DNA of 64,000 nucleotides, taken from Rhizobiaceae bacterium (GTDB lineage Bacteria; Pseudomonadota; Alphaproteobacteria; Rhizobiales; Rhizobiaceae). Shown piece after piece: positions 1,828 to 64,000 of the stretch. A program made the position numbers and the translations under genes. The stretch spans positions 3,437,940 to 3,501,939 of the forward strand of contig OZ241973.1 in the NCBI GenBank assembly GCA_965204295.1. Direction: 5' to 3'. The notes beneath the pieces were generated by a model. It was not told the origin of the DNA, searched no databases, and saw only the letters and a list, made by a program, of their open reading frames with translations. Position 1 is the stretch's first letter. Every line of letters begins with the position of its first letter.

Positions 1828-1904
<77 letters not shown>

Positions 1905-41866: not shown

Positions 41867-41942
41867 CTGGCAGGGGCAGCAGGACTTGAACCCGCGACCT
41901 ACGGTTTTGGAGACCGTCGCTCTACCGACTGAGCTATACCCC
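41867..41942 (-). tRNA. tRNA-Trp (anticodon CCA)
   Basis: 76-nt cloverleaf read on the minus strand. Acceptor AGGGGTA/TGCCCCT, anticodon stem ACGGT/ACCGT with loop CTCCAAA, T-arm GCGGG-TTCAAGT-CCTGC, encoded CCA. Confidence 0.9.
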
Positions 41943-42043
41943 TGTGGCCGGGCGCTACATGCATCAGCAATCCGGTAAATTCAAGCCCTGACTTCCCGGT
42001 CCGCACGCCCGCCGCCAATCGCCCGGCGCCTGATGACCTTCGA

Positions 42044-60394: not shown

Positions 60395-61654
60395 TCAGAA
60401 CCGCCGCTCCACGCCCACGGTTACGTTGATGTCGCGCCAGGAATATGCTCTGGCGCGGGACTTCACCCGCTGATACGTGACCGTGGCGTAAGGAGTGAAG
60501 CCGTTCGCCAGGATGATCCGGCTGCTTTCGACGGTCAGCGCTGCTCCGGTCCCCGTCTCGTCAAGACTTTCCACATAGACCGACCCCGCGTTATCGAACA
60601 GCTTCCGTTCGATGAACGCGCTCGGCCTGAGGGTGATCCCCCGGCCAACGTCGAACGCGCCGAACGCGGTCAGGCGGAACCGCTGAAAGGCGTCCGGTTC
60701 GAACTCCGCGTCCTTGTCTTCGAACGCCAGTCGCGCGCCCAGAGAGGCTCTGGGCGAGACAGGGCGCGTGGCCGTCAGGCCGAGGGTCACGGCCTGTCCG
60801 TCCCGGCTGTCATTGCGCCGGTGATCGATATCGTGCCACGCCGAGGAAACGGCCAGCGTCGCCCCGGTGTCATAACGCCGCCCGAACGTGGCGCGGAACC
60901 CGACGCGGTCTTCCCAGCCCGACCCGCTCAGGAAGCGGCGCGACGCCAAAGGCGCGACGGTCAGCGTGGAGCGCGGCCAGATGAACCGCGCGCCGGCCTC
61001 TGCCGTAAGCGTCAGGTCATCGAACCGCGATCCCGGCCCTTCGTCGCCCGCGGCGACGATCCGGGCGAAGCCCAGCGTCCGGCGCTTTGGCCCGGACAAT
61101 CCCGGGAGGTCTCGGCGCAGAGCCGCGCTGAAGGAAAAACGCAGGCCGGGAACTGTCCCGGGGTCGCGATCCAGCGTGAAGGGAAGCGCTCCGCCTCCCA
61201 CATCCAGAAGAAGCGTATCGCTCTCGTAGTCGCGGGTATTGCCCAGTTGCGCGACGGCGACATCCGCATCCCATTCAAAGCCCCGGCGGGAGTCTATCGC
61301 CCGGATGAACGACAGTATGTTCGCGCGCACGGGTTCGGGGATGTCGCCCGAGAGCGCCGAAAGAAATTCCGCGCGGGCGCGGCGCCATTGCCCCGAGTCG
61401 AAATAGGCCCGGGCCAGTTCGAGGCGCACCCGCACGAGGTCGGGATTCCGCGACAGGATATTTGCAAAGATCGCCGCCGCCGCGCGGGGCCGGCCCGCGT
61501 TCAAGAGGGCCAGGCCGGTTTCAAACCGGAGCGCGGTTACCCCGGGTCCGGAATCGACCGATACCGTCCGGGCGGCCTCGCTGCGGGCCGCCACCGGCGA
61601 CGATATGGCCAGGACGGCGCTCAGCAACAGGGCGTAAACCGGACGGGGCATCAT
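60395..61654 (-). CDS. DUF560/Slam-like outer membrane protein (N-terminal TPR region plus C-terminal beta-barrel)
   Basis: Signal peptide, and a TPR-like segment (NPDLVRVRLELARAYFDSGQWRRARAEF...PEPVRANILSFIRAI). This is followed by about 300 aa of alternating beta-strand pattern ending in a terminal Phe. The pattern matches my recollection of the Slam family; no HMM was run. Confidence 0.6.
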   Translation of the reverse strand: MMPRPVYALLLSAVLAISSPVAARSEAARTVSVDSGPGVTALRFETGLALLNAGRPRAAAAIFANILSRNPDLVRVRLELARAYFDSGQWRRARAEFLSALSGDIPEPVRANILSFIRAIDSRRGFEWDADVAVAQLGNTRDYESDTLLLDVGGGALPFTLDRDPGTVPGLRFSFSAALRRDLPGLSGPKRRTLGFARIVAAGDEGPGSRFDDLTLTAEAGARFIWPRSTLTVAPLASRRFLSGSGWEDRVGFRATFGRRYDTGATLAVSSAWHDIDHRRNDSRDGQAVTLGLTATRPVSPRASLGARLAFEDKDAEFEPDAFQRFRLTAFGAFDVGRGITLRPSAFIERKLFDNAGSVYVESLDETGTGAALTVESSRIILANGFTPYATVTYQRVKSRARAYSWRDINVTVGVERRF

Positions 61655-61716
61655 CGGGAGATGTCACAGACGGGGGCCGCTCACCGGTGGTCGGCCCGTC
61701 AATTTGCGGAAGCGGC

Positions 61717-62064
61717 CTACTCCCTAATCGCGCCAAATGCGCCGACGATGTTGTCGCTTTCAAAGATTCCGAGAGCCTCGGCATGGTCCGGTCCGACAAA
61801 ACCGCCCAGGATACTGTTCCCGGGCTGACCGTCCGCAAAGATCCCGTCTTGACCCACCGCAAGATTTTCGAAGTCTATCCTCAATGTCGCATGTGGGCTT
61901 CCGCGATCGAGATCAACGATATCGGTGAAGTGCGCGTCGACCTCGTTGTCGGCGGAGGCGTATATCAGTTCGGCGTCCCCCTGCAGGATGTTGCCGCGAT
62001 GAGCGCCGCCGACCGGCCACAGGCGCTCGGTCTCGGCAATCCAAGGGTTTTGGGAGACGCCGGT
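61717..62064 (-). CDS. TbpB/fHbp-like beta-barrel ORF (115 codons stop-to-stop), no ATG and no N-proximal start codon; status uncertain (fusion, readthrough or pseudogene)
   Basis: Hand translation gives GC3-biased codons and ends ...ILGGFVGPDHAEALGIFESDNIVGAFGAIRE. That matches the G-F-x-GP-x-A-E-x-x-G-x-F ... FGA ending of TbpB-type lipoprotein barrels. This ORF was not in the supplied track. Confidence 0.45.
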   Translation of the reverse strand, partial: TGVSQNPWIAETERLWPVGGAHRGNILQGDAELIYASADNEVDAHFTDIVDLDRGSPHATLRIDFENLAVGQDGIFADGQPGNSILGGFVGPDHAEALGIFESDNIVGAFGAIRE

Positions 62065-62802
62065 TCAGCAGACCGTGCTTTGACATGCCCGGAAGTTGGC
62101 CACTTTTTCGGTCAGAACCGCACGGCCAAGCGCGCCGAACACCACTTCGTCGCCGACCACGTAGGAGGGGGTGCCGGTAATCGACAATTCATTGGCAAGC
62201 TCATAGGTTTTCGCAAACGCCGCCTGAATTTCGGGATTTTGCATCTCCTTGCGAAGGTCCGCCTCACTGGCGCCAAGGTCCACGGCAACGCGCATGGCCT
62301 TTTCCTCGCCGGCCAGGCCTGGCCCGTTGAGCACCTCACGATGGAAATCCGCGTATTTGTCTGGATGCAGGGCGCGGAAGGCCATCGAAACAATATGAGC
62401 CCTTTGCGAATCCGGTCCCAGAATCGGAAACTCTTTCAGGGCAAATCGCAGTTCGGGGTCTTTTCTGACCATCTCATCCATGTCGGCCATGGCGCGTTTG
62501 CAGAAACCGCAATTGTAATCGAAAAACTCCACGACCGTGATCTCGCCATCGGGATTTCCGACGATCCCGTCGTAACCGGCGTTGAATATCTCATTCGCCT
62601 GCTCGGTGATTGTCGCCGTCCGCGCGAGACGTTGTTCCTGCTGCTGTCTGATTTCTAGCGCGGTTTGGGCCGAGGTCAGGGCCGGCGGGTTTGCGCCTGT
62701 CACCACGCCCCGAGCGCGCTCGGCAAAGCCTGGACTGCTGCTACAACCCGACAGGGCGATTCCCGCCGCACAGAAGACGATAAACAACATAATACGAATC
62801 AT
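62065..62802 (-). CDS. DsbA-family thiol:disulfide oxidoreductase lipoprotein
   Basis: Start MIRIMLFIVFCAAGIALSGC (lipobox), thioredoxin motif FDYNCGFCK, and C-terminal GTPSYVVGDE. The tracked ORF start at 62982 looks like an over-extension. Confidence 0.8.
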   Translation of the reverse strand: MIRIMLFIVFCAAGIALSGCSSSPGFAERARGVVTGANPPALTSAQTALEIRQQQEQRLARTATITEQANEIFNAGYDGIVGNPDGEITVVEFFDYNCGFCKRAMADMDEMVRKDPELRFALKEFPILGPDSQRAHIVSMAFRALHPDKYADFHREVLNGPGLAGEEKAMRVAVDLGASEADLRKEMQNPEIQAAFAKTYELANELSITGTPSYVVGDEVVFGALGRAVLTEKVANFRACQSTVC

Positions 62803-62947
62803 GGAAATGTCCCCGTTTTTATTCAGATAAACGCCCACCCCGGCACTCTGCAAGACGATTATGTTGTCCGCAAACCTGTCAAGGAAAAACGCCAGTGCCC
62901 GCCGAATGAAAAAGGGCGCCGCAACGGGCGCCCTTCCCGTCATCCGG

Positions 62948-64000
62948 TTATCGGGGCAGTGTGTCGTCCACGCCCGCGACATAGAAATTCATGCCAAGAA
63001 GCGCGCCGAGGTCGGCCTGTTCGCCTTCCTTGAGCCATTCCGATCCGTCCTGCTTCATGATCGGCCCGGTGAAGGGCTCCAATTCCCCGGAGGCGATCAT
63101 GGCAGTGGTTTCCTCGGCCAGAGCCTTCACGTCGTCCGGCATATTGGTGAATGGCGCCATGACGACATTGCCTTCGGCCAGACCATGCCAGACGTCATGC
63201 TGCTCCCAATCGCCGTCGATCACCGCTTTGACGCGCTCGACGTAATAGGGACCCCAATCGTCGATGATCGCGGTCAGTTGGGTTTCCCTGCCGAAGGCGA
63301 TCATGTCGGACGCCTGACCGAAAGCCTTGACGCCGCGTTCGGCCGCCACCTGCATCGGCGCCGTCGAATCGGTATGCTGCGTGACGATATCGACGCCCTG
63401 GTCGATCAGCGCCTTCGCGGCATCGGCTTCGCGGCCCGGATCGAACCAGGTGTTCGCCCAGACGACTTTCAGCTTGAAGTCGGGGTTGATCGACTGCGCG
63501 CCGAGAATGAACGAATTGATGCCACGCACCACTTCCGGGATCGGGAACGATGCAATGTAGCCGGCCACGCCCGTCGTCGACATTTTCGCCGCGATTTGGC
63601 CCTGGACGTAGCGGCCCTGATAGAATTTCGACGAGTAGGTCGAAACATTCTCATGTTCGCGCTTGTATCCCGTGGCGTGCTCGAATTTCACATCCTTGAA
63701 CTTGCCGGCGACCTTGTTGGTCGCATCCATGTAGCCGAATGAGGTCGTGAAGATAATGTTGCAGCCGGAGCGGGCAAAACGCTCCAGCGCACGCTCCGAA
63801 TCCGCGCCTTCCGGCACACTTTCCAGATACGCCGTTTCCACCGCGTCGCCAAATTCCTTTTCGACATCAAGACGGCCCCGATCATGCTGGTACGACCAGC
63901 CGAAATCGCCGATCGGACCGACATAGATAAAGCACGCCTTCGTCCTGGCTTCGACCGCCCCCGCCGCCATGGCGGCGATTGCCGCCGAAGCCAATAGTGT
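62948..64000 (-). CDS. BMP-family ABC transporter substrate-binding protein (PnrA-like), 5' end at or beyond the window edge
   Basis: IYVGPIGDFGWSYQHD ... YIASFPIPEVVRGINSF motifs of the Bmp/PnrA family. The ORF is open to the window end. Confidence 0.8.
   Translation of the reverse strand, partial: TLLASAAIAAMAAGAVEARTKACFIYVGPIGDFGWSYQHDRGRLDVEKEFGDAVETAYLESVPEGADSERALERFARSGCNIIFTTSFGYMDATNKVAGKFKDVKFEHATGYKREHENVSTYSSKFYQGRYVQGQIAAKMSTTGVAGYIASFPIPEVVRGINSFILGAQSINPDFKLKVVWANTWFDPGREADAAKALIDQGVDIVTQHTDSTAPMQVAAERGVKAFGQASDMIAFGRETQLTAIIDDWGPYYVERVKAVIDGDWEQHDVWHGLAEGNVVMAPFTNMPDDVKALAEETTAMIASGELEPFTGPIMKQDGSEWLKEGEQADLGALLGMNFYVAGVDDTLPR

Follow-up and report, generated by a model that had tools for sequence, protein, structure and literature searches.

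Genes and features at the locus

The stretch of DNA analysed here, 64,000 nucleotides from a Rhizobiaceae bacterium (GenBank assembly GCA_965204295.1, contig OZ241973.1, positions 3,437,940 to 3,501,939) and referred to below as the window, carries on its minus strand a gene for a surface lipoprotein assembly modulator (Slam; DUF560/SlipAM, type XI secretion). We describe this gene, the open frame directly upstream of it, which had been taken for a TbpB-type cargo gene, and a chimeric open reading frame (ORF) further upstream, in which the 5' end of a surface-lipoprotein (SLP) gene is joined to a fragment of dsbA.

The Slam gene (60395..61654, minus strand) is intact and encodes 419 aa. The N-terminus, MMPRPVYALLLSAVLAISSPVAA, reads as a signal peptide, and the protein ends with ...VGVERRF, the last residue being Phe. 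The first-pass annotation of this DNA, made from the sequence alone, had recognized a Slam architecture here, namely a signal peptide, a tetratricopeptide-repeat (TPR) N-domain and a barrel with a terminal Phe, and this assignment is borne out. SlipAM/DUF560 (PF04575) scores 35.9 bits in Pfam, above its cut-off of 22 (residues 210-419, profile positions 77-288), and TPR_19 scores 38.1 bits, with TPR_Slam sub-threshold. In the AlphaFold model, obtained with 19 homologues as input (predicted local distance difference test, pLDDT, 86), the signal region is disordered and five helices at residues 37-124, corresponding to the TPR N-domain, are followed by 14 long beta strands at residues 126-417. 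Foldseek found this model to resemble the TPR-plus-barrel exporters PelB, BcsC and PgaA and the 14-strand barrels FadL and OmpG; no solved Slam structure was among the matches. Homologues named DUF560 or surface lipoprotein assembly modifier are present in Shimia, Salipiger, Meridianimarinicoccus and a Rhodospirillales metagenome-assembled genome (MAG). The gene shares 97-98% identity with its counterparts in sister strains, with ratios of non-synonymous to synonymous substitution rates (dN/dS) of 0.23-0.37, and dN/dS is 0.30 against a 75%-identical relative. Judged by its sequence, the Slam gene is real and bears no sign of decay.

Upstream of Slam, beyond a 62-nt spacer (61655..61716, minus strand), lies an open frame of 115 codons (61717..62064, minus strand) with the C-terminal end ILGGFVGPDHAEALGIFESDNIVGAFGAIRE. 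The first-pass annotation had located this same-strand frame correctly and had noted that it has no ATG. The frame also has no GTG or TTG in its first 60 codons; the first possible start is a TTG at 61884, which leaves 55 codons. What had been missed is that the frame opens at the base following the TGA (62065-62067) of a DsbA-like ORF (62065..62982), in the same reading frame. It has neither a signal peptide nor a lipobox, the lipobox being located in the upstream chimeric ORF, beyond the TGA of dsbA.

Three further elements of the intact alleles are missing from the 115-codon frame: the N-domain, a YGxW motif that is conserved in them, and barrel strand 1 (ATYxGLMVG). Indeed, the hidden Markov model (HMM) of the full barrel family matches it from position 12 only (12-116 of 116), and its AlphaFold model (pLDDT 72) has seven strands, with residues 1-22 disordered. 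In Pfam, TbpB_B_D scores 14.0 bits on the frame alone, against a cut-off of 26 (E = 0.077), and NCBIfam gave no match to the 115-aa sequence. A protein search with the frame returned four homologues only, of 100-131 aa (E = 1e-36 to 6e-18; P0001, E = 1.4e-36), and tblastn of relatives against the window gave E = 1e-24 to 1e-42, beyond chance. All 13 of its weak PDB hits are TbpB or LbpB. In Foldseek, no PDB match to the model reached E <= 1e-3; generic small barrels (FABP, lipocalins) ranked at the top and HphA and fHbp had the best TM-scores, which lends weak support.

The frame alone being sub-threshold in Pfam, family-level profiles were needed for the TbpB assignment. A profile of 20 intact alphaproteobacterial relatives matched TbpB structures at E = 2.6e-11, as well as LbpB, NHBA, hemophilin and fHbp, and among the intact family members TbpB_B_D was hit by 16 of 20 at E <= 0.01 (best 3.5e-14) and FHBP_C by 5 of 20. 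Because the profile of intact relatives hits TbpB structures and 16 of the 20 relatives hit TbpB_B_D, the frame is, as far as its sequence tells, a descendant of the TbpB-type barrel family but not a gene. The TbpB-type ancestry proposed in the first-pass annotation therefore stands; the proposed gene does not, since strands 2-8 only are present. The segment is best described as a pseudogene fragment of an SLP gene, comprising 99 codons plus TAG (61717..62016, minus strand; blastn, HMM, AlphaFold), and none of the attributes of a TbpB-type cargo, that is a translatable gene with signal peptide and lipobox, a complete 8-strand barrel and a TbpB_B_D score at the gathering threshold, was found in it.

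The lipoprotein gene is interrupted by a fragment of dsbA

The region from the upstream flank to Slam is a mosaic with exact junctions. Read along the minus strand, positions 64000 to 62735, covering the upstream Bmp gene, a spacer, the signal peptide and the lipobox, are 98.8% identical to L090, a sister-strain locus with an intact lipoprotein gene, and the lipoprotein linker (62727 to 62661) is 92.5% identical to it. A 652-nt block (62668 to 62017) then corresponds to a housekeeping scsC-like dsbA, with 97% identity to L003-L006 and 100% (0 mismatches) to L007 1742-2393. From 62016 to 60301, covering barrel strands 2-8, the spacer and Slam, the sequence returns to L090 with 96.2% identity. 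The blastn blocks agree: 62787-62704 matches SLP 5' ends, 62668-62017 housekeeping dsbA, and 62016-60395 the SLP barrel and Slam. The window is collinear with L090 save for L090 1710-2143 (434 nt), the coding sequence of the variable handle domain and the first barrel strand, in place of which it has about 650 nt of dsbA made up of codons 70-269, TGA and 48 nt of 3' flank. The 91-nt Pro/Asp/Met-rich linker of L090 (L090 1552-1642) is also absent from the window, with SSSPG in its place.

The SLP-derived 5' end (62669..62802, minus strand) comprises an ATG at 62802-62800, the signal peptide MIRIMLFIVFCAAGIALSGC, a lipobox Cys codon at 62745-62743 and the linker SSSPGFAERARGVVTGANPPALTSA; besides its likeness to L090, closer through the Cys codon than in the linker, it is 78% identical to the lipoproteins of L001. 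The dsbA-derived coding segment (62068..62668, minus strand; blastn, Pfam DSBA) corresponds to residues 70-269 of the ScsC-like DsbA P0134 and keeps the CGFC motif. It ends at a TGA (62065..62067, minus strand) that closes the reading frame of the chimera, in phase with the barrel remnant. All eight canonical DsbA homologues (8/8) end with ...ACxSTVC and then stop, and this TGA is thus dsbA's own terminator. The next 48 nt (62017..62064, minus strand) are 100% identical to L007 2346-2393, downstream of the dsbA stop. Since the dsbA block runs past the TGA, codons 1-16 of the 115-codon frame are former dsbA 3' untranslated sequence, a copy of the flank of the housekeeping gene. Homology of the remnant to intact alleles begins exactly at 62016, with 96% identity to L090 from 2144 onward and 75% to L001. 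The 5' junction displays the microhomology CCAAA, and the 3' junction shares at most 1-2 bases, which points to illegitimate recombination.

The lipoproteins of L001 (L001 5371-5480) and the chimera of the window (62641-62787) share the linker FAERAxGV..PPxLTSxxIQQ..GVLGNADA, and the weak similarity to L001 seems to run a few codons into the dsbA-derived part of the chimera (tblastn, alignment), perhaps a trace of earlier exchange of sequence between dsbA and lipoprotein genes.

The chimeric ORF couples a lipoprotein signal to a DsbA domain

The chimeric ORF (62065..62802, minus strand; ORF and alignments) encodes 245 aa, a lipoprotein signal followed by a DsbA thioredoxin domain. In the public gene call, P0005, the product of the window is given a start further upstream and a length of 292 aa. 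A GGGGA lies seven bases upstream of the ATG at 62802, and a terminator-like hairpin, GGGCGCC-CGTTGC-GGCGCCC followed by TTTTT (62909..62933, minus strand), is found just after the Bmp gene, which supports this ATG as the real start. A perfect TTGACA is located upstream of the chimeric ORF (62881-62876, minus strand); both signals were read from the sequence.

Residues 46-245 of the chimera are identical to residues 70-269 of P0134, residues 1-69 of the parent being replaced. DSBA (PF01323) scores 85.3 bits on the chimera, against a cut-off of 25.6, and the CxxC motif is present as CGFC. ScsC_N (PF18312), carried by all canonical homologues, gave no Pfam hit at E <= 1, and the chimera is without the first half of this domain. 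The chimera is in this respect a DsbA with its active-site motif but not a full ScsC-type protein. The nearest named relatives of the DsbA are from Rhizobiaceae and Mesorhizobium, the nearest named species being about 64% identical.

The lipobox Cys is directly followed by Ser in the chimera. Under the classical Lol sorting rule, Ser after the lipobox Cys favours outer-membrane targeting. We infer that the chimera would be made as a lipoprotein with a DsbA thioredoxin domain and would stay on the periplasmic side, since it is without the C-terminal barrel common to all predicted Slam cargoes (PMC5449769).

A weak NCBIfam (seleno)lipoprotein hit (30.8 bits, cut-off 190) raised the question of whether the TGA is read as selenocysteine, a candidate that was rejected given that the TGA ends all canonical homologues. 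Across the whole 64-kb window, Rfam reported two tRNAs only, and no recoding or regulatory element near the TGA; the tRNA genes are at window positions 1828-1901 (plus strand) and 41871-41943 (minus strand).

Sister strains carry intact alleles or the same chimera

L090, very close to the window, has an intact 320-aa lipoprotein gene upstream of Slam. In L002, a 339-aa lipoprotein (L002 5284-6303) with the N-terminus MMTSSFRLLSLGFLTAAGIALSGC is encoded directly upstream of Slam, and L001 has two tandem lipoprotein copies, of 327 and 319 aa, in the same place. The uncharacterised cargo announced in the first-pass annotation is found intact only in these three sister strains and not in the window. 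Sister strains differ greatly in the allele that occupies the Bmp-Slam slot, and the window shares its flanking synteny, from Bmp to Slam, with the strains that have an intact gene.

L002 also carries a perfect 19-nt tandem repeat of 10.4 copies (L002 5088-5284), the end of which coincides with the start codon of its intact lipoprotein gene, and an 18-nt repeat of 5.1 copies inside the gene (L002 5397-5507) that encodes a PDPDPM linker. The two repeats together may provide phase or length variation of the cargo. No tandem repeat was found at the window's own locus.

A second strain shares the rearranged allele. L008, on a different contig and 96.4% identical overall, has the same chimera (P0125), the same junctions and the same in-frame remnant, with a Slam of 422 aa. 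The remnants of the window and L008 differ at 55 nucleotides and by an indel of one codon (3 nt), and that of L008 is without the conserved GPxHxE motif and has no Pfam hit at E <= 1. Over 3.7 kb, the two loci diverge by 20-25% at 61950-61600, a patch that reaches from the 3' half of the barrel across the spacer into the first codons of Slam, and by 0-4% elsewhere; by this pattern, the patch looks like an imported recombination patch.

In each strain the dsbA segment is identical in sequence to the housekeeping copy of that same strain, with 0 mismatches (window versus L007, L008 versus L009), and between strains it differs at six sites, at block positions 18-354. L007, a locus from another run that encodes the identical protein (P0134), stands in here for the nucleotides of the window genome's own housekeeping dsbA. 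On the L008/L009 contig, the chimeric and housekeeping dsbA are about 270 kb apart. Because the copies are identical within a strain and different between strains, the chimera has apparently been kept identical to the parental dsbA by gene conversion after the strains split.

Probable capture of a dsbA fragment and alternative explanations

Taken together, these data make it highly probable that the locus is a Slam-plus-surface-lipoprotein module in which illegitimate recombination with a fragment of the strain's own dsbA destroyed the lipoprotein gene. In this scheme, about 650 nt of a housekeeping scsC-like dsbA, from codon 70 through the stop plus 48 nt, would have taken the place of 434 nt in the central part of the lipoprotein gene. 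The event would have left three products: a new 245-aa ORF, in which the lipoprotein signal peptide, lipobox and linker precede a DsbA domain that ends at dsbA's native TGA; a presumably untranslated remnant of barrel strands 2-8 which, with the 48-nt dsbA flank, would account for the "115-codon ORF"; and a Slam gene left intact. The latter is probably still co-transcribed. It may serve lipoproteins encoded elsewhere, as suggested by the presence of two separate Slam loci (L010 and L011, both on OZ242016.1) in one related MAG.

Several points weigh against this reconstruction. The window genome's own dsbA nucleotides are represented through a locus from another run, and the identity between chimeric and parental copies could in principle come from assembly polishing. 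For the remnant, dN/dS is 0.93 when the window is compared with L008 and 0.69 when it is compared with intact L090, comparisons that include an intact allele giving 0.66-0.78; barrel values of 0.66-0.93 are thus obtained whether the gene is intact or not, the recombination patch accounts for part of the divergence from L008, and the ratio does not separate a pseudogene from a gene. A consensus scan for promoters and terminators found no promoters, returned terminators not above shuffled controls, reported neither the hairpin nor the TTGACA, and is uninformative. Finally, both chimeric strains retain the remnant as an open frame in phase with the TGA, which would permit rare readthrough.

Four other explanations were weighed. 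First, the remnant could be a silent cassette that exchanges with lipoprotein genes elsewhere, in a manner resembling antigenic variation. The divergent patch between the window and L008 suggests imported sequence, and both the very different alleles in the Bmp-Slam slot and the two Slam loci of one related genome would suit such exchange. Against this, tblastn found no second barrel copy within the 64-kb window, and the patch also takes in the spacer and the first codons of Slam, in keeping with ordinary recombination between alleles of different strains. We consider this explanation very unlikely.

Second, readthrough of the TGA could yield a functional fusion, a DsbA lipoprotein with a partial barrel displayed at the surface by Slam. 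In favour of this proposal, the remnant has stayed in frame and open in two strains despite the 55 differences and the one-codon indel between them. However, the TGA and the 48 nt that follow are a verbatim copy of the end of the housekeeping gene, where no extension exists, and, one inherited event underlying both strains, the frame match is a single 1-in-3 coincidence. Furthermore, the barrel would be built without strand 1, the L008 remnant has lost GPxHxE and any Pfam hit, no Rfam element lies at the TGA, and a query joining DsbA and barrel was never covered above 68% among the top hits, none of which is a fused homologue. A functional fusion is consequently most improbable.

Third, the mosaic could be an assembly artefact, a mis-join across a 652-bp repeat: the dsbA segment recurs without change at a second locus of the genome, and exact repeats are a common cause of misassembly. 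Yet both junctions are identical in the independently assembled L008, the order of genes from Bmp to Slam is that of the intact strains, and a mis-join would still need dsbA to lie beside pieces of the lipoprotein gene somewhere in the genome, which together make an artefact barely credible.

Last, the reading of the first-pass annotation, a stand-alone TbpB-type cargo gene with a non-ATG start that forms a surface-lipoprotein display system with the adjacent Slam, can be given next to no credence: the same-strand position beside Slam, the TbpB-like C-terminal motif and the weak TbpB and LbpB hits speak for it, but the frame has no start codon for 60 codons, no strand 1 and neither the signal peptide nor the lipobox present in 67 of 78 relatives, junction mapping assigns its codons 1-16 to the dsbA flank, and intact alleles are about 300-340 aa long.

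The chimera itself might have become a working new gene rather than debris: a lipoprotein-anchored DsbA driven by what was once the promoter of the cargo, kept free of errors through gene conversion and, by occasional readthrough of the TGA, extended by a partial barrel and displayed at the surface by Slam. Although we regard this proposal as a distant prospect, it would, if true, amount to natural cargo-domain swapping in type XI secretion and would place a thiol-disulfide oxidoreductase on the cell surface.

Flanking genes and family context

Upstream of the chimeric ORF lies a gene for a Bmp-family ABC-transporter binding protein (62948..63994, minus strand), the 5' end of which is cut by the window edge; the family was assigned from the Pfam Bmp matches of the syntenic genes in L002, L008 and L090, with 99% identity. 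The variable SLP slot is bordered on its left by this conserved gene. The neighbours of Slam at the locus are the Bmp ABC transporter, a BKACE-family gene and an aminotransferase, and no TonB-dependent receptor or iron-related gene was found there.

Species-representative genomes were scanned with a Slam alignment, which yielded 80 loci and, with nine earlier ones (L001-L009), a set of 89. In 67 of these 89, the full barrel HMM matches the very C-terminal end of an ORF, usually one of 300-385 aa that ends just upstream of Slam. A methionine, a hydrophobic stretch and a lipobox are found in 67 of the 78 barrel ORFs, many of them with a poly-Gly linker after the cysteine. From these predicted genes, Slam-plus-TbpB-type lipoprotein pairs are common in marine alphaproteobacteria (Ruegeria, Shimia, Dinoroseobacter, Meridianimarinicoccus).

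Three loci (L067, L068, L084), from Thiotrichales, gammaproteobacterial and alphaproteobacterial MAGs, encode two-barrel TbpB-like proteins of 660-713 aa beside Slam. The barrel gene is on the strand opposite to Slam in Ruegeria (L023, L027, L031, L036, L037, L039, L045, L047 and L057) and in L050 and L052, from other genera; in most other genera, the barrel lipoprotein gene is on the same strand as Slam. The public gene calls P0002 (L001 6001-6354) and P0001 (L002 6001-6303) are cut to 100-131 aa, the true ORFs being 320-340 aa long. Public gene calls often cut members of the family short in this way; protein databases consequently hold too few of them, and Pfam domains have not been precomputed for the family.

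These results bear on how the locus should be handled. The "cargo" frame next to Slam ought to be neither annotated nor studied as a gene; the cargo worth study is the intact lipoprotein of about 320 aa of the sister strains L090, L002 and L001, and the Bmp-Slam slot is best viewed as a strain-variable cassette. The understanding of how Slam works is unchanged by these findings. What is specific to this locus is the probable microhomology-mediated capture of a housekeeping dsbA fragment, giving rise to a lipoprotein-DsbA ORF that appears to evolve in concert with its parent.

Comparison with known systems

Slams are reported from all proteobacterial classes, and the 8-strand barrel is common to their predicted cargoes (PMC5449769). 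Some DUF560 clusters described are dominated by water and soil organisms, including Sphingomonadaceae (PMC8406197), and Slam-lipoprotein pairs outside pathogens have already been reported (PMC5449769, PMC8406197). A literature search for Slam together with Alphaproteobacteria gave no match. In light of these two reports, an alphaproteobacterial Slam next to a TbpB-type neighbour belongs to an already-known kind of system.

One of the closest known systems is Slam1/Slam2 of Neisseria meningitidis, with the cargoes TbpB, LbpB, fHbp and HpuA (PMC5449769, PMC9090332, PMC8406197). The Slam of the window has the same signal peptide, TPR domain and DUF560 14-strand barrel. As in Neisseria, the cargo gene, here a remnant, is placed directly upstream; in intact relatives the cargo carries a lipobox and a Gly/Ser-rich linker, together with a variable N-domain and, at the C-terminus, an 8-strand barrel of TbpB type. 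Unlike in Neisseria, the cargo of the window is disrupted and reduced to strands 2-8, no TonB-dependent receptor or iron gene is nearby, the SlipAM score is low at 35.9 bits, and the host is an uncultured-type alphaproteobacterium rather than an animal pathogen.

The intact alleles are alike in design to PmSLP of Pasteurella multocida (PM1514/PM1515) and to the 2017 catalogue of predicted Slam-dependent lipoproteins (PMC5449769), that is single-lobe proteins of about 300 aa with an 8-strand barrel, encoded beside Slam. This design is found in intact L090, L002 and L001 and in at least 60 marine alphaproteobacterial loci. By contrast with PmSLP and the catalogue, the N-terminal domains of the predicted cargoes of this clade are unrelated to those of any characterised cargo.

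HphA, the Slam-dependent secreted hemophore (hemophilin) of Acinetobacter baumannii (PMC8560813; PDB 7re4, 7rea), reaches the highest TM-scores against the model of the remnant (0.53-0.58, at a probability of 0.99), and the family profile matches hemophilin 8glo at E = 3e-5. The Foldseek E-values of 0.25-0.5 for HphA are however not significant, and the remnant has no heme-clamp homology and no hemO-type locus nearby.

The second parent of the mosaic is a ScsC-type DsbA, in which a ScsC_N (PF18312) stalk is joined to a thioredoxin domain. The inserted fragment, residues 70-269, is identical to its parent at the CGFC motif and the C-terminus. Unlike a ScsC-type DsbA, the chimera is devoid of the native signal or anchor and of the first half of ScsC_N, and has gained a lipoprotein signal peptide instead.

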